From: Yuukianura sp. NJ FZ-2021
Lineage: Eukaryota
Length of the DNA: 64,000 nucleotides
Reading direction: 5' to 3'
Assembly (NCBI GenBank): GCA_046563655.1
Contig: CM102283.1
Location: 5,022,001-5,086,000, forward strand
In this document: in pieces, positions 48,962 to 63,178 of the stretch
Layout of the letters: each line of letters starts with the position of its first letter
Position numbering within the stretch: position 1 is the stretch's first letter
Program-made: the position numbers and the translations under genes
Notes under the pieces: generated by a model
What the model was told of the DNA's origin: nothing
Database searches by the model: none
What the model saw: the letters and a program-made list of their open reading frames with translations, nothing else

Positions 48962-51900
48962 TTAGAAGAATGAGTCGTCGGGCGACGCTGCATGTGGATC
49001 CCATGCTCTGGAATTAGCCAAAGCTCGATTCAAATGTGCACACCAGGCATCTCGTTCCTCTCGTGTGTCGGCGGACAGCAAGTGGCGAATGGCAGTCCGA
49101 TTTCCATGACAACTCACAATCAGAGAGTTCTTGTCACTTTCATCCGCCTCTCGCGTCGTCACTAACAACAAAGTGTTCGATCTTGCGCAGACGTCTCGAT
49201 GGACTGGAGAAACACGCGTTGTGACGACATTGCGTAGAGAGATTTCATCCACGGGAAACTGCAGGAAAAAAAAACATTTTTTTGTTTGTATGATGACAAC
49301 AATTTTTGCGTAGGGCGCATTATAGTGGCACGCCGCGCCGCCGTCTCTCCGAAGCGAATTGTCACAAAACCATATTCTGCGAAAGACGGTTTGCTCCGAA
49401 ATTGAATTAATTTACAGTAGAGTGCATAGAGGGTAGGTTAAAATCATAAGGATAGGTGTGGGTGTAGGTAAAAATCTTAAGATTACACTTGGCTGAGTTA
49501 TTATAAGCCATTATCTTAGCTTAAGCAAAGCTCACGCATGTTCCGAGCAATTTGCTACTCGGAGCAATTGGTTTCCTGTGAATTCATTCGGGCAATTCGC
49601 TTCGGAGCAATGGCATGCAACCGTGGCAATGAGCTACATACTTTTCCATCCTGTTCATCTTCAGGGTACATCCAGAAGGAGATGTGATTTGTGCTAAGTC
49701 TGCTCCAGCGCCGGTGCCACGCCCCAAATCCAGAGATGTCATCAAACAGTGTGAGGAACCCGGTCATTTCCTCTCCGCCTTCTGCGCTACATTGTAACTG
49801 GAATGAAACGGATCCCTCAACGGGAGAATCCAACCGCACCCCATCCAGTGTCCGAATTCTTCCTCTGGTTGCCAACGTAGAAATGTTGACTGTGAGACGG
49901 CCACAGATTACAAAGTTGGGACTTCGCACTGCGTCAGGACCAGCAGGACTCATCGGAACAGCACGGCTCAATTTGGACTCCGCTTTCAATTTCCTTGGTG
50001 TCGTCACCTTTGATTCCTTCTGACACATAACATCATGTTGAATAAGATTTAGATATGATTTAGAAAAAGATATGAGAACTCACCTTCTTAATGTGGTATT
50101 TAGTTTCGTGTGGAAGGAATTCCCTCTGCGTTTGAAGTACGAACACTTCTAGCTCAGCCTTAAAATCCGGCTCAAGTTTTTCCAGTCGAAAGGTGTTAGG
50201 GAAGTGCAGGCAGTTGTTGGAGTCGAGCACTTTAGCGTTGTTTTTACCACTGCCAATTGACACGAGTGAGCTCATCTCCACTCGATGTTTCTCCTTCAAC
50301 AGGACCAGAAAGTGATAAACGTTGTCTCCGTTCGTAACTTTGTTTCGGATGAACGCCTCTTTCAATTCAACGGCAATTCCACTGATGGTTAGGTTCCCGC
50401 GACATGAAGGACCCAGGTCATTCCTGCTTGCAGAAAAACATGGTTTCTGGGATAGAACTCCTTCAGTTCGCAGGCGCGTCATTTCATTCAAAATCGCATT
50501 TCTCTTCTGACCTAAAAAAAAATAAAAACGGTTTTTTTTTGCCATTAAAAATATATTGTTATCCGTTTTAGTAGGTACTCATGGAACTAACTTGTCATAT
50601 GCCCTCGCAGTAGACTTAACGCATTTGATATTCGTACTGAAAGTTTAAGCAAAAGCAACTTACATGCAAACAGTAAAACTTTTTCACATTCGACGTTTTC
50701 TGTTGAGTCTGAGAACTCAATCGTAGATTTGCACAGGTTCAGCGCTTTACTCACTTGAGCAATGGACTTTACTTGAGCTTCCAACTATTCAAAACCAAAC
50801 AAATCAACAAATGAACGCGGATATAGTACTTTGAAATATTCCTCGAAAGCAACAAATACTAAATGAAAATAATAGGCTTACCTCATCGTCCAGTTTTTTG
50901 ATTTGTTCATTAATGGACTCGGTACGAAGTATATCCGACTCTAAACCAGGCGTTTCTAGCAATTCCGGCTCATCCGTACCAATAATCCCCGCAGAAACAG
51001 TTGCCCCAGCGGTCTTTTTTGGCGTGACACACATTTGTTGCTCCTGTTTCCTAAAGAAACTGACAGAATGAAGAAGCGGAGTTGCGGATGCGGTATAGCC
51101 ATCTCTCTCTCGCGGATACAGTGGTGACGACGATTCCAAGGGACTCGCATCCTGAAATTCAAAAACAATCATTTATTTATTCCAACAGTGAAAACACGAA
51201 AACAGAATTGATTTCGATTTAGATTACCTCCATAATTGTGTCCATGGAAAAGCTCTGCCCATCTAGGGCTGAGTCAATCATGGCGTCGATTTGATGACAC
51301 ACAAGTGATGCACTGAACTGCATTTTAAAAGAGTTCGAATCAAAGCAATATAATTAGGAATTACAGTTCCTCAGATCGCACACACAAAATAGGCGCAAAA
51401 CTAATTCAATAATTTAATCCCTTTATATTATCGGTAATTTATTTTTAGTTGTTTAAGTCACCTCTTCCGTAGGTCTGTAGTGTGGACGACGGGGCGTCTT
51501 TCCAATGTTATCAAATCGCTCCAAATGAATGGGACTACTAGGATCTGCATCCGAAACTACGTTCGCTTTGGCCATTCTTTGGATTTGCGACCCGAGACTT
51601 GATCCCGGGCTAACCTCTTCTTCCTCGCAAAAGGTTGCGTTCGATGTATCCGCGTCTTGGCTGTCGATATCACCTTCTGCCTCGGTTTCTGCTTCCGTTT
51701 CCTCCTCAGTGGTAGCTTCAATGTCAGTGAGAGAGGGATAAATGTTTCCGGGTTTGGGTTCATTCACTTTGATCCGTTTAACGTCGCAAGCTCCAGCATA
51801 CTTTTTGTCTGGGGAAGGGGAACGACGAAAAGAGGGTGACGCAGCTCGCTTCGGTGTCGTACTTTGTATAGGGATACACTTCTGTGGAGAACTGGAGCGT

Positions 51901-53707
51901 GAGCGAGACTTGCTCGAACGACGTCGGCGTCTGGATTGGGACCCTCGAGATAGATTAGTCTCCACAATGGTTGTTTCGAGCGAGTTGAGTGCGCTGAAAC
52001 TGATAGACTCGTCGGATTCCGTTTGCTGTGAACATGAAGAAGTGGAGCAAGGAGTGGCATTGTCGTCTTCGTCTTGGTCGCCCCGTCCGAAGGTATTAGT
52101 GATCCCTTGAGCATGGATTGCAGTCTGCATCTCTGTGTTAGAAGTGCAGGTTCTTTCATCCTTTTCGTCCATTGCTTCCTCATCTTCGTCCAACCTTCCC
52201 GGTGTACTCAAACCTGCTGCTTCAAAAAGACGTCGAGAGCTCTGAACCTTTCCGTGCGGAATGGTCATCGAAGAACCTAGTAGTTATATAAAATAATTAA
52301 ACTCACACTCCGGCTTTTTCTTTCTGTAAAAAACAAAAACAAAACTAAATCGTAAGATGAATAAACTCACGCCTTGGTTTTGCAGTTATACAGGCTACTG
52401 CTCCAGGAATAATGGCTGCGGGAGGCACGACTTTGGTCTTCGATGCTTCAAAAACAGTTTCGAATGGCTTCGGAATCGGAATGTTACCTTGCGATTTTTG
52501 TTCAAATAATTTGGCTCTCTCTGCAACAGATAAAGACGACGACCCAGCAAGTGTCGTATTCAATTCCACCCTCGACCCCTTCACTTCCCACTTCTTCGGC
52601 AGACCGGACGTTGGTACGCTAAAATTTGGTACATTCTGATTGATGATGGGATGAGAAGTAGCCATGGACATAGTTACAGTAGGCTTAGGTTTCGGTTGAC
52701 TTGGTGCTATAATATTCTGCACGGAAGGTTCGGAAAGTACGCACACTTGATTAGGAGTTTCTCGAATTTCTGATGCCTTTGTATTCTGGCACTGTGTTCC
52801 TGATGTTTTCTGCGGCGAAAACGATTTGAAGGGATCCACGAGTTGAAATCTTACTTCCTTTGGTGAAGATGTTGCGTTACTGCTCTGCTTCGTGGGCGAA
52901 GCAAGATTGGTGGTTGTTTGTGAAATATGAAACTGAGTCGAAGATCGATGGAAACGAGGTGAGCTTTTTGGTGGAGAAACATTGAAGCGCGATGCAGGTG
53001 GAACATAGTGGGTCATGTCGTCTTCCCACTCGTTGATTCGTTTCGTAAGGGATTTGAGTCGAGAACGACGCTCTCCTTTACCTGACTCCACGGAAACATA
53101 CTCATCCATTTCGATTCCCTCTGGTATAGTGTTACTGTTGTTATCGTCCACGAAACTAGAAATTTAAATTAGCGGTTAGTTTTGACTTCATGAACAGTTT
53201 CCGTTAAAAATGAATCAGGGTACTGGGTACAATTATTATTATATTAAAAAATTTATGAACTATGATTTAGGTGAGAGATTGAAGAAATAACAGTCATAGA
53301 GAATAAAAAAGAAGAAGGGCTGCAAAGCGGTTGAATCCGAAAGAAGTTACATCATTACACAATCACAGTGACAGTGACACTAAATATAACTCAAATCACC
53401 TACTCTGTATTTGAAGCTTGAATTTCTTTCAGAGGAACGATAAGTTTGGGCAATGTAATTGGTAACTCTTTAGCTTCACTCTCGTCAGATTCCATTTCCA
53501 ACGTGTCCATTTCAGGTCCTGCGATAGCTCCCTTTCGTACCTTCGCTCTTTCTAAAAGCATCTGTGAACACGGACTATTAGTACATAAAAAGTAACATTA
53601 ACTTGAATTAAATACAGTAAATAAGTAGCTCTGACAGCTACTATTTACTTATGTGATCTTACTTGAGCAAAGTCAGCAATTCGTTCCGGACTTTCGGGAC
53701 CCGGCAT
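48962..53707 (-). CDS. ANLN: Anillin (actin-binding cytokinesis scaffold), multi-exon
   Basis: RLKSLTKRINEWEDD, SVAERAKLFEQ, IAQVSKALNLC...STENVECEKVLL, anillin-homology domain (LTISGIAVEL...LEVFVLQT), PH domain GFLTLFDDISGFGAWHRRW...RHLLSADTREERDAWC. Confidence 0.92.
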
Positions 53708-56695
53708 TATGTTATGGCTTGCTTGGCGTGTTAGTTAGCTGCTGTGTGAATGAGGCGAAGGTGACCCCCGCTAGGCTGTCAGCGACACTGTCGTTTCGTC
53801 GGCCTTGTCTGGTTGTTTTTGTCGATTCGTGACACGTAATTGTACAAAGGATTCGAACGCACGCTTATAAGTCAACTAATTTTGAATAATGATTGATTAG
53901 TAAACCGTCGGTTAAATTCATGGACAGCCGAGATAAGGTGCAGACAAACTGAAGAAAGTCAACGGCTAAAGAAATTACTAATAACGGTGAGCGGGGGAGA
54001 GTCGGCGGGAGTAAAGGGATTTTGAGGTTGTCCCAGAAACCAACCGACAAAAAAGGGAGACAAAAAAAAGACAATTTAAGACGAAAGAGCAGTCAGGCAA
54101 AGTCGCTCCTGGCTGCGACCCAGTCTCCAGCTGAAAAGTCGCAAGACTCTGAGACTGGGTCTCCTCCTCTATCGACTCCTGTCACTGGGTCGCAGTCCCA
54201 AGAGACCCAGCCTCTGCTCCTAGCGACTTAATTTAGTTTTTCGGTGTTAGGACGGACTTCCCACCGAGAAAGGTACTGTTTTCTTTCTTTTAATCGATAG
54301 AAAACGTAATTTCGCAACTTTGCATCGTTGGCTTTTCCGTCCTTGACCCCGTGGCCCAAGATATTCAAGTTTTCTTTTTCAAACACTAATTTCAGAGTGT
54401 TAGGAAAAAGCTTTTTTGGCGAATTTGACATCAGTCGATGCCAAATTTTGTCTACTTTTTAAAACAGTAATTAGTTTTAGATTAATTTAAGCATTAAGAA
54501 GGAATCACACATGGCAACGGGGTGTCTCGTTTCGCCTCAAATTAATTAACTTTAAGGTCTAATTAGAATTCACAGGTATAACGCAGAAATGTGTACAAGG
54601 GCTCTAAAAATTCGTCTTTATCTGTAGAATACAGAGCAGTAATCGGAATTTGAATTTTTGTTGGAAAATGGTACTAAAAATTGAATACAAAGTTCAATAT
54701 TTCCTAAACGTCGAATGATACCAAAATTCGGGAATTTGGTCAAGGCGACTTAAGCGCCATGGTCTTCCGGATTTTTAGACACCTCAAACGCATTTCTAGG
54801 TCTTATAATGAACATCTAATTAGCCAAAGTAGATGAAATTCTGCAGTAATTTACAAATTTGCAAATGTCGGCACTGAAATTAGCCGTCTCTATGGGAACA
54901 CGTTGATTGTTTTGTTCCAGCTTAGTTGATATGTTGTACTGTGGAAAACTTTGACTAGTCAACCATTCGAAACAGTGCCGACTTTTGCAAGTTTGAGCAG
55001 TGATTTTGCTTTGTTACTAACGGCAATGGCTGACACCAAATCGTAAACAAACGCTGCCTCTTACCCGTCCTTAATCCGAAATATTTAAGGAAAATTCTAG
55101 TCCAATCGACATAGTCGCAGTGACGGGAGGCCGGGTCTCCACAGGCTGCGACTCACCCGCAAAATTTTTATGAAAAGTGGCAACGCTGTATCCATTCGGA
55201 ATGCATTGAAAATCAATGAAATTGCACATGGGGTACAATTTCAATATTTGGTTGTCAAATTTTGATTTCAGTTATGGCAGTTTTTCAACATTTCTTTTAA
55301 CTAAAAATTACTAATTAATTTAATTAGTATTGTATATAATTAAAATCTTAACGCCTTTGTTGCCCATTGAATACATTTTAGAAACCATTTTTGAAAATTA
55401 CGGGAATTTTTCCCTATGAACTTCTGATAACAAAAACAAAAGTAAATTTAAAAAAAAAATTGATTTAAAAAAAATTCTTTTCCCTCAAAATTTCGAAAAA
55501 AAAAAAAAAAAAAAAACTTTCTCCGATATCAATGTAAATCGGTTTGTTAACTAGCTTAAAAATGCTGAACATGAGTCTGGAAGAATTTCCCAAAAAAAGG
55601 TGTAAAACTAAACAGTTAAAACTTATTAAAATAAACTCTTTTTTTAGCCTACATCACAATTTGTAAAATGGTTCCCGTCTTTTTTTCGTGGTGTATATAG
55701 GGATGCATTGAAAATAACCTCCCAAGCCTCGTATAGTTTTGCATTAAATGCTCACTTTTTTGTGTTAGAACAGGTTTCTTTCCGTATATGATACACTTGT
55801 AAGTTTGCAATCCAATTCAAAAACTTGCAGTTGAAACATTAAACAAAAATAGCCACAGTGCTACGCTAGAATAAGCCCATAGAAAATACATGGGAATTAT
55901 AGGCAACACTGCAATGACCAATTTCTGAGACCGGGTCGCCGCTGGCTGCGACCCGGGTGTGGTTCCAGTAGTTGCCACAAGATGGGTCTGAATGGGTCGC
56001 TTGGAGAAGAGACAGGACCGCCTCCTGTAGCGACCCTGGGTCGCTACAGGAGGCGACCAGGACTCTTCCACGGGAGACTTTTCCTGACTGAAGAGGGTTG
56101 ACGTAACCCAACCGTCCTCATTGTGCTCTCGACTATGATTATGATTGCTCAACTCTCCATTAGTTGCCAAGGGGATTTTTCGTTTCTCTGTTTAACTAGA
56201 GTGGACATTAGTAGTGGTGATGTTGTCGGTTGAGCCATTTTAAATGTTATGTTAGTTAGTTAATTATGTTATCGTTAGTTGTTTTAGATAGTTAAGTGAT
56301 TAATATAATAATATATAAATAAAAAAAATGCCCCTGTATGTGTGCTATGTGTGTGTGGGTGTCCATGTCTTCCCGCGTGTTAGAAATAGCGGGTAACAAA
56401 ACAAACAAGGTAGGGCGATGCTCAAGGGTTGAGGATTGGTCTTCTGGAGGGAGTTGGCAATTGATGTGGCTTTTAGACCGGCTATCCGCGAACGCGTTCA
56501 AGAAAAACGTTAAGAAACCGTTTTCACGAGATTTATGCAACGAAACTTCGCTCATAATCTTCAGTGCAGATTTGGGGCGTGTTTGTACACAATTGCACTA
56601 AAATGTGAAAGAACCGTTTGCATAAAAATGTTGTTCAAAAGCTCAGTTTTCACTCTGTTCAAATCCTTTGAAGCACAACATTTTAACGTCAAATT

Positions 56696-59600
56696 TTAAA
56701 TTTTATTCAACATTTAACGAAAAACATGCACCTGCCAATGGCAGGTTGAAGACAAATTTAAGCAATTAAAAATATAGCTAAAGATAAAATAATTGATCCA
56801 AATCTTTTCCTGGTGGAAGGGTTCCCAGGATCGAGGCGGAGTTCCCTCTCTGAATTGCAATGCTAATATTTTGAAGCAGAAAAGTAGTGGCTCTGTGTTC
56901 TCCAGTGGCTTCTGCGATTCGTTGACCAATTGACTTGATGAGTTGTAGACCCTCAGCTCCAAAAACACCCGTAGTTTCTACTGCAACGATGGAGACGATG
57001 AATTGATGATGAAAGTCGTCGTAGAGTCTGTGTTTCTGAGTTTCAGCCAAGGAGGCAGGGTAACCACTGGTACAAGAAGAGTTGGTAATGTAGGAGTTCG
57101 CAAACGTGTCTCGACATGTTACATCCCAAACCAAACATCGTCCAGTTTTCCATGGGATCAAAGTGATTCCGTCTGGTCGTTTCCCATCGGAGCGAGAACA
57201 TCCTGGTGGTTCCTTCAAGCAGGGAATACCGGCTGAATGGAGAGCTCGAACAATAAGGTCATTGATTGAATCATGTCTCGAGTGTCTCCCTGCGCTTTTG
57301 ATACAACTCAGTCCGTGAAGACCGTTACCATCGACAGGGGCGCCACAGCGACATCGGTGAGGTAAACAAATTTCGCAACCAAGCCGTAGAGAGCAGGAAA
57401 TCCTAAAACAATCGTTAGACAGAAGTGTACCAAGTTGAGAAGACGGCAACACCTTCAGCCAATCACCGGAGTGAGGGGCAACAGCAGCAATTAGTCGTGC
57501 TTTGTCAGTCAAAGTAGTGGAATTCTCGAGTAATGTCTTGTAAGTTTCGGTTGACACCAATTTCTCCCAATCTTTTTGTATCTTGCAATTAACTGGAAAT
57601 TGGAAGCCGTTATTGGACCATTGCAAAGTTGCTGAATCAGTAGATGCATCGAATGGAGAGAGGTGAAGTGGCAGGAAGGTGTTGATCAGGTCAGCACAAC
57701 TGTAGATTGAAGCCAAAAACGAGAAAGTAGCACAATCTGTAGCATGCCGGATTCCAAGGCCACCTTCGTCCACAGGTAGGGAAGTTTGAGTCCATGCAGA
57801 GTCTGTTAAGTTGATGTTCAGAATTTTTTCGATGACTTCCCGAAGAGCTGCATCATAAGCTTTCAACAGATCTCCTTCCAGAAAAGATGGTGCGCACCGC
57901 AGGAAATATGACAGTCTTGGAGTCGATATTGAGGCTCTTAGTAAGAAGAATGCCACGTGAGAGGGTAGGGCTAAGAGCTTAGGCGAAAGTTTTTCAAAAT
58001 CATCTGTCTTGACTTTCAAAATACGTCGACCAGACGCCTTGTATAGTGGGGCCCCAAGAAGTTCAGCATCTGATTCATCACATATGTGGATTTCTGGAGC
58101 GAAGGATAGAAAAGAGTCCGCAATGACTTGAGATTCCGTTGGATCAGCGCCTATGATGATGATCTCGCACTTTTCCATGTTGATCTGAAGTCCAAAAGAA
58201 GCTGCATTGTTGACGAGCTGCTTGAGATGATTGAGGATTACTTCAGGAGTATCTGCAATGGTTCCATCATCAACATACCAAACATTGAGTGCTGAGTTGA
58301 TTGAAGTGGCAAGAGGGTGAATTGTGAGAGCAAAGAGGGCTGGACCAAGTGCATCACCCTGTTGGACACCGAGACTTGACTTGATTATGGATGACCCGTA
58401 GAATAAATTGGACTCTGCAGAATAGGCTTGATAGATGTAGTTGTAGAACTCTGGAAGGTGCAGCTTTACAGAATGTAGCATTACATCTCTTAGGATAAGA
58501 TTGAAAGCGTTCTTGAAGTCGATTTTCAGCATGACCTTGCTGGCTGAGTGTGAGGAATTGACATAAATCCTTGCGGCGTGGGCTGTAGCTTCTGCTCCGT
58601 TTTTGACTCCAACACCATTTTGTACTGGGCTCAAGTATGGAACAATGTTTTTCATGGATTTTGACAGTACAAGCTTTGATGTCAGACGACGCCAAGTTAA
58701 CCCAATTGCGATCGGACGAATCCCTCCCTTCTTTTTCTGAAGAGCAATCAATGAGGCCCCGTAGAAAATTGGACGGACGAGGTCGGGAATGACGTTGTTA
58801 ATGATAAGATTTGAGAGCTTTGTAATTGAAGAAAGCAGTTTCTGACCAGCATCTCCAGTAACCTTTGAAGTGAGTTCTTTCAAAATTTGGGGACGTAGGC
58901 AGTCGAGACCACCCGCTGAACCATTAGGAAAGGAAGAGATTGATTTCAGTACTTCATGTTCGTCGAAAAAAACTTCAGTTGGTTGGGGAGGATCTGGAAG
59001 ACTGATTGGAGTTGGATGAGGAGGATGAAGTTTGTGAAGGGCGTCTAATGTCGATGAATCTTGATAGGCTATTGAATCGTCTGAGCATAATACGCGAACT
59101 GCGCCGTGAATATCTCCGTCAGCAAGTTTGGCTTGAATAATGGATGACTGATTGGAGGATTGCGGATCACGTGGTCTGCTTGAGGTAACGAAATCTAGTG
59201 TTGGGAAGTCGAGGACTGGAAGAGATGAAGCACGGCAAATGTTAGATTTCACCCAGGAAGTGAGATTTGTGACGTGGTCAGTCTTTTTTGGTAATGCAAA
59301 AGCTGAGAATGGGAAAAGAAGAAGGTTGGACCAGGATTCGACCGAGTTGGTTGAAGTGACTTGATCAATGAAATTTGAGAGACACGAAGCAGCAGTTACC
59401 CTTGCGCCTTTAGGAATGTGTTTCAGGGTGTGCGTAGATTGCTTGAGCTTGGAGAGAGTACTTCCTAGGTCAAAATGTGGAGAGTTAGTAGACGTAGAAC
59501 CAGAATCCTTCCAAGCGATGCCAGAGTAGGATTGATCGGCATGACGGCGACCTCCAGCTCGAGTAGTCGACAAAAAAGGAAAAGCCTTTCGTAGTTTGGC

Positions 59601-60620
59601 ACCGATGGTGGCGTCCACAACTGGACGAATCTTCAAGGAGTCACAGAATTGGTGGTATTTGGATTTGATGTCAAATTTTCTGATTGAACCATCAGGAGTT
59701 GAAACAATGTTGTCAGCAATCCATTTATCTGTTATCTTCGAAATCTGGAATCTTCCAGGAGGAGAGGGAGGATTGGAGACGTGTAAATCGAATACTGGAA
59801 CTGAGACGGAATAGGAGACGATGTCTTCGTTAGGTTCAGGAACTGGCGACAAACTGGAAGCAACTTCATTGGAGACAGAAACTGAGGATAAACTGGAACC
59901 ATCTTCATTGTAGACTTCAACTGATGACAAACAGGAACGGGAGTAATTGGATAATGGAATTGATGACACGATAGAGATGTTTTCATTTGGTTCAGGAACG
60001 GGCGACAAACTGGAAGCATCTTCATTGGAGACAGAAACTGAGGACAAACTGGAACCATCTTCATTGTAGACTTCAACTGATGAAAAACAGGAACGGGAGT
60101 AATTGGATACTGGAATTGATGACACGATAGAGATGTCTTCATTTGGTTCAGGAACTGGCGACGAACTGGAAACATTGTCTTTGGAAACAAGAACTGGCGA
60201 CAAACTTGAAACGGCTTCGTTGGAAACAGCAGTTGACGACAAATTGGGAGTAGTTGTGATGTTGTTTGGAGCTGATGACGAAGGAGAAACTGCGATGGAG
60301 ATTGATTTCATTTTACTTCTGTTTTTTAATTTCCGTTGAGGCATATTAGTTGTTATGGAGATGAGTTTAAGGGTCCACGGAGATGTTGAAAACTTTGAGA
60401 GTTGTTGGTGAAGAGAATGGCACTAGTCGTCCAAGTGACGAAACTGGTCCAGAAAGGCTGAGGTGGTGACGATTCTTCTGAAACTTGTCACAAATGGATA
60501 AGCAGGCAAAGTTGTTCCGGATGATATGAGCAAAAGTTGTATAAATGATGAATAAATGTTGCAACAAACTGGAAAAGTGAAGAGCAAAAATTTCGTGTTT
60601 TTGTTTGTTGATGTTTTTCA
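56696..60620 (-). mobile_element. Intact CRE-like non-LTR retrotransposon with a restriction-like endonuclease
   Basis: 11-bp TSD AACGTCAAATT at 56685-56695 and 60621-60631; single long ORF; AATAAA near the 3' end. Confidence 0.92.
56778..60344 (-). CDS. Retrotransposon polyprotein (1188 aa): Ser-rich repeats, RFX-like winged helix, RT, CCHC, RLE
   Basis: RT motifs GIRPIAIG, IDFKNAFN, GVQQGDALGPALF, WYVDDG; zinc motif CRCG...HGLSC; RHD; PD-(D/E)xK-type RPDG...WDVT...AETQK. Confidence 0.92.
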   Translation of the reverse strand: MPQRKLKNRSKMKSISIAVSPSSSAPNNITTTPNLSSTAVSNEAVSSLSPVLVSKDNVSSSSPVPEPNEDISIVSSIPVSNYSRSCFSSVEVYNEDGSSLSSVSVSNEDASSLSPVPEPNENISIVSSIPLSNYSRSCLSSVEVYNEDGSSLSSVSVSNEVASSLSPVPEPNEDIVSYSVSVPVFDLHVSNPPSPPGRFQISKITDKWIADNIVSTPDGSIRKFDIKSKYHQFCDSLKIRPVVDATIGAKLRKAFPFLSTTRAGGRRHADQSYSGIAWKDSGSTSTNSPHFDLGSTLSKLKQSTHTLKHIPKGARVTAASCLSNFIDQVTSTNSVESWSNLLLFPFSAFALPKKTDHVTNLTSWVKSNICRASSLPVLDFPTLDFVTSSRPRDPQSSNQSSIIQAKLADGDIHGAVRVLCSDDSIAYQDSSTLDALHKLHPPHPTPISLPDPPQPTEVFFDEHEVLKSISSFPNGSAGGLDCLRPQILKELTSKVTGDAGQKLLSSITKLSNLIINNVIPDLVRPIFYGASLIALQKKKGGIRPIAIGLTWRRLTSKLVLSKSMKNIVPYLSPVQNGVGVKNGAEATAHAARIYVNSSHSASKVMLKIDFKNAFNLILRDVMLHSVKLHLPEFYNYIYQAYSAESNLFYGSSIIKSSLGVQQGDALGPALFALTIHPLATSINSALNVWYVDDGTIADTPEVILNHLKQLVNNAASFGLQINMEKCEIIIIGADPTESQVIADSFLSFAPEIHICDESDAELLGAPLYKASGRRILKVKTDDFEKLSPKLLALPSHVAFFLLRASISTPRLSYFLRCAPSFLEGDLLKAYDAALREVIEKILNINLTDSAWTQTSLPVDEGGLGIRHATDCATFSFLASIYSCADLINTFLPLHLSPFDASTDSATLQWSNNGFQFPVNCKIQKDWEKLVSTETYKTLLENSTTLTDKARLIAAVAPHSGDWLKVLPSSQLGTLLSNDCFRISCSLRLGCEICLPHRCRCGAPVDGNGLHGLSCIKSAGRHSRHDSINDLIVRALHSAGIPCLKEPPGCSRSDGKRPDGITLIPWKTGRCLVWDVTCRDTFANSYITNSSCTSGYPASLAETQKHRLYDDFHHQFIVSIVAVETTGVFGAEGLQLIKSIGQRIAEATGEHRATTFLLQNISIAIQRGNSASILGTLPPGKDLDQLFYL

Positions 60621-61491
60621 AACGTCAAATTGTTCTCAAGTATACACAAAATTAGAATGCCCTTAAATCTGTTCATGTAAATGCACAATTATTCGGATGT
60701 AATCACCATTCTAAAAGATGTATGTGCAGTTGTTCTCCAGTATTCACAAATTTTAAAATAGCAACGTCCATTGTACAGCGTCAGAATAATTGCGCAATTC
60801 GACATTTATGTGCATCTACGTATAAGTGTGCACAAACTTGAACGTTGAGGGGCAGGGGTCAAATACAGCTTCCTTAAAATCAAACTCGGTTCAAATAGAT
60901 GCACCATGTGTTAAATTAAGTGTATAAGTTATAGAGTCAAATGTCACTTTTATTAAAATCGAAATTATAAAATGTTCTTGTACACGCAATTTTGAACCCT
61001 GTCATTCACTGTCTACATGTTACAAATTTAAGCCGGAATTTCTAATATTTAACTAGGCTTAATTTAACAACACAATGAAACTAACTGTCAGAAAATGACC
61101 AGATCAAAACTTCGTTGTGTAAATAAATTTTTAGTGTAATCGAAACCAAAACATTTCTGCGAGCCACGAAACTGCGGGTACGTAAATTAGCCGCTAACTT
61201 CTACGTTGTTAATATAACACTTTGAGTGCAATGCAGACCTAATGAGAACATTTGTGCCGTACAGAACCCCCCAACTGCGATGGGGCTGATGTTTCAGTGG
61301 AAAGGGTCCTGAAAAACGTGACAGACAGAAAAGTCGTATCAATAGTCTTCTTCAGCATGTCGTAGACATGCGTCTCCAGAAGACTAAAACTACTTAGTGA
61401 CGAATGAGTAAGTGACACTGTTCAATCTGTGTTACATGAGACTAATATGAAATTATATAAAATTTTATTAACATAAGACTTGGATCCCATC

Positions 61492-62490
61492 CCGGGTGGG
61501 AAACAACAAGGTAGGGCAATGCTCAAGGGTTGAGCATTGGTCTTCTGGAGGAGTTGGCAATTGATACGGCTTTTAGACCGGCTGTCCGCAAATCCGTTGA
61601 AGAAAAACGTTAAGAAACCGTTTTCACGAGATTTATGCAAAGAAACGTCGCTCATAATTTTCAGTGCAGATGTGGGACCTTTTTGTGCACAAGTGCACAA
61701 AAATGTGAAAAAACCGTTTGCATAAAAATGTTGTGCAAATTTAGCTCAGATTTCACTTTGTTCAGATGTTTTGATGCACAACGTTTTGTATCAAAGTGCT
61801 CTCAAGTATGCACAAAATCAGAATGGCCTTAAATCTGTTCATGTAAATGCACAATTATTCGCAGGTTATCACCATTATAAAAGCAGTATGTGCAGTGGTT
61901 CTCCAGTATGCACATATTTTGAAATATCAACGTTCATTTTCCATGGTCAAAATAACTGCGAAATTCGACATTTATGCACATCTACGTGTAACTACGTGTA
62001 AGTGTGCACAAAATTGAACGTTGAGGATCAGTGGTCAAATATAGCTTCTTTAAAATCAAAATCGGTTCAAATACTTGCACAATGTGTTAAATCAAGTGTA
62101 TAAGTAATAGAGTCGAATATCGCTTGTTAAAATCAAAATTATAAAAATTTCTTGCAAAGGTCAAATTTTAACCCTGTCATGTTTACATGTTACCAATTTA
62201 AGCCGGATTTTCTACCGTCTAATCAGTCTTAATTTAACAACGTAACTAAACATACTGCCAGAAAATGACCAGATCAAAACTCCGTTGTTTATAAATATTT
62301 TGAGTGCAATCGAAACTAAAACAGTTTTGCGGAGCCACGATACTGCGGGTACGTAAAGTAGCCGCCAACTTTTACGTTGTTAATTTAACACTTTGAGTGC
62401 AATGTAGACCTACTGAAAACTCTTGAGCCATACATAACCCCCGACTGCGATGGGGCTAATGTTTCAGTACAATGAGTCCTAAAAAACGTG

Positions 62491-62524
<34 letters not shown>

Positions 62525-62581
62525 AAAGTCGTATCAATAGTCTTCTTCAGCACGTCGTAGACGTGCGTCTCCAGAAGACTA
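61492..62581 (+). mobile_element. ~1.1-kb non-autonomous repeat, copy B (HINE/Helentron-like, tentative)
   Basis: Tandem paralog of copy A; (GACA)n at ~62490-62525; terminal AGTCTTCT..GCACGTC-GTA-GACGTGC..AGAAGACT followed by an A run. Confidence 0.6.
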
Positions 62582-63178
62582 AAAAAACGGGACGACAAAC
62601 ATGCGAAGTGAAATTACACAGAACAATATCAAAACTACTTTGTACTTTCACCTCGCCAACTTGTCCGTTTTTGCTCCCACACGGAAGAAGGGATTCAACT
62701 TTCTTGCTTTCAGTTTTAATTTGCCGTTTGAAGGTAAACCATCCGAATATGGGAATCAACCCACTGAACATGGCAGGAGTCATCCCTGTGGAAGACACCG
62801 AAATCGAGCGTCAAAGAAAATCTGTTCCGAAGAAAGGAAAATTTCAATGTCCGCATTGTTGCGATATGTAGCAAATGATCAGTTAGGGAGAGCAATTGAA
62901 AATGATTTTATGACTTTGATTTTATTTAGTTACTAAAAAAATACTTAATAGTGAGAAGTTGTTTTAAAGTGAAATTGAATTGAGTGACTGAATGAATGGA
63001 AGTGTAAGTAAAAGACTATGACTTGTATTCCTATGATTATGATATTGAGATGTTGTGTATTGAGTGTTTTGTTGACCGTTAGACGCTACAGTAACCTAAG
63101 GCTAAAAGTCGACGCTATGCCTATTTTAAGCTACACAGTAGACGCTATTCTAAAGTCTATGTTTTTGTTATTTCTAAA

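Follow-up and report, generated by a model that had tools for sequence, protein, structure and literature searches.

Non-LTR retrotransposons that carry a restriction-like endonuclease are being developed for gene insertion, and it is their DNA-binding N terminus that one would like to exchange. The locus examined here, in a window of 64,000 nucleotides from Yuukianura sp. NJ FZ-2021 (contig CM102283.1, positions 5,022,001 to 5,086,000), raises the question of what an RFX-type winged helix does at the head of such an element. A sequence-only reading had proposed that the domain was captured and gives the element a different targeting mechanism. The features concerned, numbered from the first letter of the window, are the following.

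56685..56695, minus strand: 11 bp target-site duplication, copy beyond the 3′ end
56696..60620, minus strand: whole non-LTR retrotransposon, 3,925 bp, between the target-site copies
56727..56746, minus strand: 3′ UTR hairpin of 7 consensus pairs
56778..60344, minus strand: single ORF, 1188 aa
57120..57353, minus strand: CCHC knuckle and restriction-like endonuclease motifs (RHD...E...RPD...D)
58155..58739, minus strand: reverse transcriptase core, PF00078, aa 536-730
59283..59471, minus strand: conserved helical segment ahead of the reverse transcriptase (RT), aa 292-354
59508..59735, minus strand: RFX-type winged-helix DNA-binding domain, Pfam PF02257, aa 204-279
59736..60344, minus strand: Ser-rich low-complexity head, aa 1-203, with 156-nt repeats of 39-nt sub-period
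60349..60362, minus strand: X-box-like 14-mer ATCTCCATAACAAC in the 5′ UTR, 4 nt ahead of the ATG
60577..60598, minus strand: candidate initiator/promoter block, a conserved 5′-terminal motif common to full-length copies
60621..60631, minus strand: 11 bp target-site duplication, copy ahead of the 5′ end

Both copies of the 11 bp duplication announced by the sequence-only reading were located, and the element lies in a host repeat, of which an empty copy is present at about 61500-62580. RT followed by CCHC and PD-(D/E)xK motifs within one ORF places it among the restriction-like-endonuclease non-LTR elements. The element had also been called intact: the frame is indeed open over 1188 aa, but at 7 columns that do not vary among 9 intact relatives its residue differs, R618L and L691V being among the changes; the relatives themselves, however, show 0 to 15 such differences each. 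The family includes 5′-truncated copies and A-rich 3′ tails, and a 10-15 bp duplication was found by rule at 45 of 77 3′ ends, versus 4.4% of mismatched pairs. Scanning the element against Rfam yielded no match at E≤1, hence no known ribozyme or rRNA. The 3′ UTR hairpin shows compensatory changes in 3 of its 7 pairs (9 copies compared) and is a candidate RNA recognition element. The helical segment ahead of RT is present in RFX-less relatives too, and by its position would be the counterpart of the RNA-binding NTE-1 of R2.

The identity of the winged helix was confirmed. The match to PF02257 (RFX_DNA_binding) coincides exactly with 59508-59735, covers profile positions 3-78 of 79 and reaches 37 bits (E 5.3×10−9), above the curated cut-off of 27 bits; 9 of 9 further family members score 31.7-47.6 bits. 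The AlphaFold2 model of the domain (pLDDT 90) superposes on RFX5 (8zjr) at 1.4 Å and on RFX1 (1dp7) at 1.6 Å rmsd, and these two are the only ones of 500 Foldseek matches to reach E≤0.001. A D5/primase-type origin was rejected, as Pox_D5 did not match the window's protein and ASFV PrimPol reached only E 0.41 with Foldseek; a single one of the 23 homologues scanned matched Pox_D5, at 22 bits versus 47 for RFX. The other regions of RFX factors are absent from the element protein in the Pfam scan. Nine residues of RFX1 contact DNA (R19, K45, R48, R57, R58, G60, R62, K66 and Y67; PMC12311785). In the window copy R48, R58, G60 and R62 are identical, R19 is conservatively replaced by K, and K45, R57, K66 and Y67 are altered, a mixed loss that fits relaxed specificity. 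Among 34 element domains, the base-reading arginines are kept in 29 (R58) and 22 (R62). In a tree of RFX domains 33 of these 34 fall with RFX5/7-type domains (UFBoot 98), so that the captured domain appears closest to this type, a weakly resolved placement given ~75 columns, one outlier and long-branch neighbours that leave the donor unproven. The host genome itself encodes two RFX1-3-like genes and one intron-split RFX5/7-like gene.

A Pfam scan of the N-terminal 203 aa returned no family, so C2H2, Myb and PHD are all absent, in agreement with the earlier statement that no C2H2 finger or Myb domain is present there. The Ser-rich head occupies the place held by a PHD finger in older branches. 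PHD precedes RFX in 8 of the 23 homologues scanned, as well as in 2 copies from the same genome; the window copy and most other copies there are devoid of it. Ancestrally the head consisted of PHD and RFX together; the branch of the window copy later lost PHD. Within the genome, 39 of 44 RFX matches belong to such elements, and the domain was found in 39 of 39 elements checked. Relatives elsewhere, in which the PHD finger is frequent, include Folsomia candida. They were retrieved with a PHD-bearing copy as query and by profile search; a word-based search that used only the RFX region of the window scored none of 77 candidates, and the ESM Atlas gave no usable match. Multi-RFX proteins among the profile matches were discarded, having no RT and being unrelated to the element. 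The slot directly before the conserved pre-RT helices holds RFX here and C2H2, OTU or PHD modules in relatives. In the RT tree, one clade of 34 (support 0.92) holds 23 rows labelled RFX, with 3 zinc-finger elements nested between them, so RFX and zinc-finger modules look interchangeable. The first half of the earlier proposal thus stands, as capture by one CRE-like lineage in the zinc-finger slot; its second half, sequence-specific targeting, is not supported.

This second half was examined on 45 insertion sites, whose alignment had been suggested as a way to a target consensus. The sites are dispersed, and their only common feature is a short A/T motif. A is present at −3 in 36 of 45, and AAA lies within −5 to −1 in 23 (5.3 expected), position −1 (A in 30 of 45) and the first A's being partly set by the way the duplication is delimited against the A-rich tail. 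TTT is found just beyond the far end in 18 sites (7.0 expected), which points to a similar context at both nicks. The loose X-box consensus was counted 7 times within 50 nt and 52 times within 300 nt, for 10.2 and 55.5 expected, and the strict consensus not once at either distance. Among the columns at −60 to −7 none stands out after correction for 240 tests, the top k-mers nearby are A-runs, and no conserved motif was seen 22-34 nt upstream. Tandem arrays on C4, C10 and C17 were also considered as target arrays, a reading abandoned since their units include flanking DNA and look like segmental repeats. We conclude that insertions of this family are not site-specific.

The RFX domain is under constraint in the protein. 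In 5 disjoint pairs its dN/dS is 0.06-0.13, close to that of RT (0.08-0.13), and in 5 of 5 pairs it is below that of the adjacent linker (0.17-0.49). The domain is thus under purifying selection, besides being RFX-type and lineage-wide. Selection of such strength would be easier to reconcile with a task carried out for the RNA that encodes the protein than with a service common to all copies.

Outside the protein, and unexpectedly, the 276-nt 5′ UTR carries a conserved block resembling an X-box. It is kept in 13 of 13 aligned 5′ UTRs, 222-244 nt from the 5′ motif, and is the best X-box window in both UTR groups, themselves only 39-47% alike. Column shuffling equalled its conservation in none of 1000 trials and pattern permutation in 14 of 20000, and positions 1 and 9 are always purines, as in the RFX consensus. 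It falls in three different reading frames, its distance from the ATG varying between 4 and 86 nt, so that it is no by-product of coding or of the start codon. The block persists through 5′-end swaps between lineages, and of the three metagenome relatives with a 5′ region, two (L140 and L139) score 11/11 and 10/11 near the ATG; L142 has no box. X-boxes were scored here by consensus patterns rather than by a weight matrix: the published loose consensus is exact in 7 of the 13 boxes and one base off in 6. A second box 55-70 nt downstream reached 9-10 of 11 in no more than 4 UTRs of the 13, is absent from the window copy and does not count as conserved. The UTR profile, run with nhmmer against 7 metagenome loci, detected nothing similar. 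The conserved upstream box is a hint that host RFX proteins, or the element itself, may exert control here.

What, then, may the domain be doing? That it is a relic in decay is refuted by the comparison with RT and linker and by its presence in every element checked; the drift of several DNA-contact residues and the members with a zinc finger instead speak for this idea, to which we give practically no credit. Direction of insertion to X-boxes, or to another fixed motif nearby, is very unlikely. A good X-box does lie close to single sites, and within 800 nt the strict motif (4 versus 1.4 expected) and the element-type motif (5 versus 1.4) are slightly commoner, but this excess is based on only 4 background matches, and the shorter distances show no excess; for existing copies, X-box targeting is already largely refuted. 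A PHD-RFX head might instead steer the particle to certain nucleosomes, or open them, in the manner of RFX5. The heads with PHD ahead of RFX would suit this, as does the best solved-structure match, a nucleosome-bound RFX5 (PMC12311785), and 12 of 45 sites match at least 2 other fetched loci versus 3 of 200 control windows. This control is however unmatched, most fetched loci being themselves insertion sites, survival in repeats would explain the excess too, and the window copy and most of its genome's copies have no PHD. Old insertions are filtered by selection and could hide a chromatin preference; we hold such a tether to be improbable.

A more serious competitor is that the domain binds the block in the element's own 5′ end, either on genomic copies, feeding back on the internal promoter in competition with host RFX or in aid of it, or on the freshly made double-stranded copy during completion of the 5′ junction. 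The conservation, purines, frames and persistence of the block all speak for this. On the other side, the loose consensus is often missed by one base, three further UTR blocks that are not X-boxes are equally conserved, L142 is boxless, one identical RFX domain goes with two box variants (L065 versus L069), and host RFX accounts for the box equally well. We see this as possible, with odds clearly below even. A LINE protein reading its own internal promoter or new 5′ end, self-regulating and wired into the host RFX (cilia) circuit, is likewise a tentative picture.

Our preferred reading, to which we give a probability of about 0.5, is that RFX is a low-specificity DNA grip in place of the zinc finger, and that the 5′ UTR box serves host RFX. 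On this view the element, a full-length LINE with one ORF and a restriction-like endonuclease, would spread through target-primed reverse transcription to dispersed positions rich in A and T. An RFX DNA-binding domain would once have been captured in its lineage behind a PHD finger, the latter being shed later in the branch of the window copy; the domain would grip DNA with low specificity, taking over the zinc finger's role, and the X-box-like block would be used by host RFX factors. The Pfam, PDB-sequence and fold matches and the position before the pre-RT helices favour the grip. Against it, R58 and R62 are kept although a generic grip would not need base-reading arginines, and it would be a coincidence for one element to hold both a conserved X-box and a captured RFX domain if the two never met.

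The family amounts to a swap made by nature: a winged helix has worked in place of the zinc finger long enough for many diverged subfamilies to arise, and the same clade shows returns to zinc fingers. Possession of a transcription-factor DNA-binding domain is also separable from site specificity in an element family. The block raises the further question of whether a LINE is driven by RFX factors, with its own protein feeding back on the promoter.

The nearest named group is presumably that of the animal CRE-like families. We found no published description of the PHD/RFX-RT architecture; two Folsomia candida entries of the element's lineage, the PHD-RFX-RT protein OXA58286.1 and the fragment OXA42729.1 with an RFX domain, bear the automatic names 'Pol polyprotein from R2DM' and 'DNA-binding protein RFX7'. 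By the descriptions of CRE-clade elements (CRE1/2, SLACS, CZAR, Cnl1, MoTeR, FoTeR) in PMC12278014 and PMC12857005, the element shares with them a single ORF with RT, CCHC and restriction-like endonuclease, internal repeats, variable target duplications and an A-rich tail. It departs from the same descriptions by RFX with or without PHD where they have one or two zinc fingers, by dispersed sites where they target spliced-leader genes or telomeres, and by endonuclease spacers of 9, 8 and 15 for published values of 7-8, 9-10 and 12-14. All residues of the SLACS/CRE endonuclease consensus, drawn from protist elements, are present, with 3 of 7 spacers off by one. With a tree that has no named clade anchor, and with fixed target and zinc fingers absent, we call the element CRE-like and not a CRE member.

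With R2 (R2Bm, R2Tg), as described in PMC10499050, it shares the succession of N-terminal DNA binder, pre-RT helices, RT, linker, CCHC and endonuclease, and a structured 3′ UTR. According to the same source, the R2 zinc finger and Myb bind 22-34 nt upstream of the site; the element has neither module, no motif at −34 to −22, and no rRNA target, the 28S rDNA site of the R2 clade included; its duplications are 10-15 bp long. With the RFX factors themselves (RFX5, RFX1) it has in common the fold and the wing residues R58, G60 and R62, but identity is about 30%, the four contacts named above are changed and the domain is fused to RT. A precedent is offered by NeSL and Utopia which, according to PMC4640811, captured a Ulp1 protease or RNase H as a new N-terminal module in a restriction-like-endonuclease element; there an enzyme was added and the zinc fingers stay, whereas here a transcription-factor DNA-binding domain replaces them.

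The RFX-type domain that the sequence-only reading had placed in the retrotransposon of the window was recovered by a Pfam scan. The features placed on the sequence, the 5′ UTR block discussed below among them, are:

56778-60344, minus strand: single open ORF, 1188 aa
59508-59735, minus strand: RFX_DNA_binding, aa 204-279 (Pfam E 5.3e-9, 37 bits, cut-off 27)
aa 536-730 of the ORF: RVT_1 (Pfam)
60349-60362, minus strand: X-box-like block, window's copy, ATCTCCATAACAAC

A 13-member family profile matched the solved structures of RFX5 (6e-13) and RFX1 (1.3e-7), with ARID2 at 0.05 only. An AlphaFold2 model of aa 200-354 (pLDDT 90), submitted to Foldseek, had 2 matches with E<=0.001 among 500, RFX5 (rmsd 1.4 Å) and RFX1 (1.6 Å). 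The open ORF and the 11-bp duplication flanking the element, on which its apparent integrity had been based, were both found again, and the proposal that the N-terminus has neither C2H2 nor Myb domain agrees with our Pfam scan of the first 203 aa, which detected no family; Ser-rich repeats make up this segment. CCHC and endonuclease motifs lie downstream of the RT, and the 3′ end forms a hairpin with compensatory changes. The element splits a host repeat, an empty copy of which is found 1 kb off. This 1.1-1.2 kb non-coding dispersed repeat has two adjoining copies, 82-97% alike in blocks, at 56404-56695 + 60621-61390 (the interrupted one) and 61505-62584, and its fragments also border other insertion sites, e.g. 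those of copies L003, L063 and L078. Open frames at 51453-53109 (minus strand) presumably resemble exons of an anillin-like gene.

Searching the 98.7-Mb genome with PF02257 gave 44 matches: 2 canonical RFX genes, 2 exons that belong to one further, RFX5/7-like gene, 1 match under the cut-off, and 39 element-borne matches (some of them tandem or probable assembly duplicates), all of which have the same pre-RT segment (a conserved helical stretch) and an RT downstream. The endonuclease end has 96 matches. In two genome copies a PHD-like finger, under the Pfam cut-off, precedes the RFX domain. Head-to-tail arrays of mostly frameshifted copies with flanking DNA were seen at G000:C4:9091000-9109000, G000:C17:11000-32000 and G000:C10:771000-780000; those of C17 and C4 hardly differ and might represent a single locus that was assembled twice.

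Outside this genome, the closest named relatives belong to the springtail Folsomia candida. Among 272 proteins fetched, 23 have both RFX and the pre-RT segment and 201 the segment without RFX, many of the latter being incomplete at the N-terminal end. When 23 homologues were scanned, RFX was above cut-off in 17, and PHD was matched in 8 (4 above cut-off). A midpoint-rooted RT tree of 142 sequences, chosen by likeness to an RFX-bearing query and with at least 230 aligned RT residues, places 23/23 RFX-labelled rows within one 34-member clade (FastTree support 0.92), together with 3 zinc-finger and 8 truncated rows; the labels of P0014 and P0019 were set by hand, and P0005 and L139 are one element. 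The simplest reading is a single RFX capture, with PHD-RFX ancestral, PHD lost later and some reversions to zinc fingers. The donor appears to have been of RFX5/7-like kind, although this is weakly resolved.

Several observations concern the front end of these elements. The 5′ UTR and protein head were exchanged between lineages (L065 versus L069-L071; L074 versus L076), with the junction directly before RFX, and one type of UTR, combined with a Ser-rich repeat head, occurs on at least 4 RT branches. A short Gly/Asp/Cys motif lies between the PHD position and RFX in L061, L062, L064, L076, L079-L082 and L140; it is retained in PHD-less branches and is not present in the window's copy. In related elements (P0017, P0025, P0034, P0088, P0095, P0107, P0119) the precomputed Pfam annotation includes OTU, ubiquitin hydrolase or PHD alone, which indicates that the front end of the group is highly exchangeable. 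One protein family (870-1090 aa; P0129-P0136, P0161; ENA, Logan assemblies) carries 4-5 tandem RFX-like domains without RT.

Selection acts on the RFX domain of this lineage. Estimated from 5 disjoint pairs of intact elements, with dS pooled from RFX to stop and close to saturation in 2 of the 5 pairs, dN/dS is 0.06-0.13 in RFX, 0.08-0.13 in the RT, 0.09-0.13 in the endonuclease and 0.17-0.49 in the linker. That the domain is a relic is therefore hardly credible. Compared with RFX1, in which 9 residues contact DNA (PMC12311785), the window copy keeps R48, R58, G60 and R62, has R19K, and is changed at K45, R57, K66 and Y67.

What does not stand is the claim that the domain provides a different targeting mechanism. 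By a fixed rule, a 10-15 bp duplication was found for 45/77 3′ ends, versus 67/1522 mismatched pairs. The rebuilt target sites are rich in A and T: their GC content is 27% within 20 nt, compared with 38% for 200 kb of background. They have A at -3 in 36/45, AAA in -5..-1 in 23/45 (5.3 expected) and TTT just beyond the far end in 18/45 (7.0 expected), position -1 and the first A's being partly an artefact of how the duplication is delimited. Both nicks thus have a similar context, consistent with the action of the endonuclease and with priming on a tail rich in A. The alignment of these 45 sites yielded this A/T-rich context as its only consensus: none of the columns between -60 and -7 is conspicuous in 240 tests, whereas in R2Bm -34..-22 is read by a zinc finger and Myb (PMC10499050). 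Targeting to X-boxes, the binding sites of RFX factors, is very improbable: the loose consensus occurred 7 times within 50 nt (10.2 expected) and 52 times within 300 nt (55.5 expected), and the strict one at neither distance. Within 800 nt there were 4 strict and 5 element-type matches for 1.4 expected, a figure derived from just 4 background hits each. We conclude that the RFX domain confers no special target and that insertion is non-specific.

An X-box-like sequence is found in the element itself. All 13 aligned full-length 5′ UTRs share a 14-nt block without gaps, which reads RTYNCCWNRNCAAC apart from a few exceptions and lies 222-244 nt from a conserved 5′ motif. Scored in 10 representative UTRs against the strict consensus with 2-nt spacer (PMC2375033), it reaches a mean of 9.2/11, the next-best window 6.7; 0/1000 column shuffles and, with the alignment kept intact, 14/20000 permuted patterns equalled it. 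It is the top window in both UTR groups, mutually just 39-47% alike. The block occurs in 3 reading frames, in one case ahead of an in-frame stop, and its distance to the ATG ranges over 4-86 nt; it can therefore be put down neither to coding nor to start-codon context. It was retained across 5′-end swaps (L065/L069, body 99% and UTR 53% alike; L074/L076, 89% and 52%). Among the three metagenome relatives that include a 5′ region, L140 has an 11/11 match 96 nt before the ATG, for a background of 0.015 per kb, and also a loose one 3 nt before it, L139 a 10/11 match at -21, and L142 none. Against the X-box reading, 6/13 blocks are one base off the loose consensus, which by itself predicts little (PMC2375033), three further UTR blocks are equally conserved, a second box is not conserved across UTRs, and the copies have common ancestry. 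Two blocks at ~60420-60450 and 60510-60525 (minus strand), as strongly conserved in both groups, had no Rfam match.

The slot occupied by RFX, its alternation with zinc fingers, selection as strong as on the RT and the drift of base contacts speak for a domain that would stand in for a zinc finger as a putative low-specificity grip on target DNA, while a host RFX factor would read the box; we give these two parts jointly a probability of about 0.5. Recognition of the box by the element's own domain, for feedback or during 5′-junction completion, is a possible but less probable arrangement, and a role in chromatin tethering is unlikely. The self-contained association of RFX domain and X-box is the part worth testing.

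Among the freely accessible papers searched, we found none that reports an RFX domain from an element of this kind; the RFX-RT architecture is already present, unremarked, in NCBI and UniRef entries. The element works as a restriction-like-endonuclease LINE does. It is CRE-like but was not assigned to CRE, because 3/7 of its spacers miss the endonuclease spacing published for SLACS/CRE and the zinc fingers and fixed target of CRE are both absent; the RT tree contains no CRE reference protein. Captures of N-terminal domains are already known in Utopia and NeSL (PMC4640811), and relatives of the present element carry OTU, PHD and C2H2 heads.
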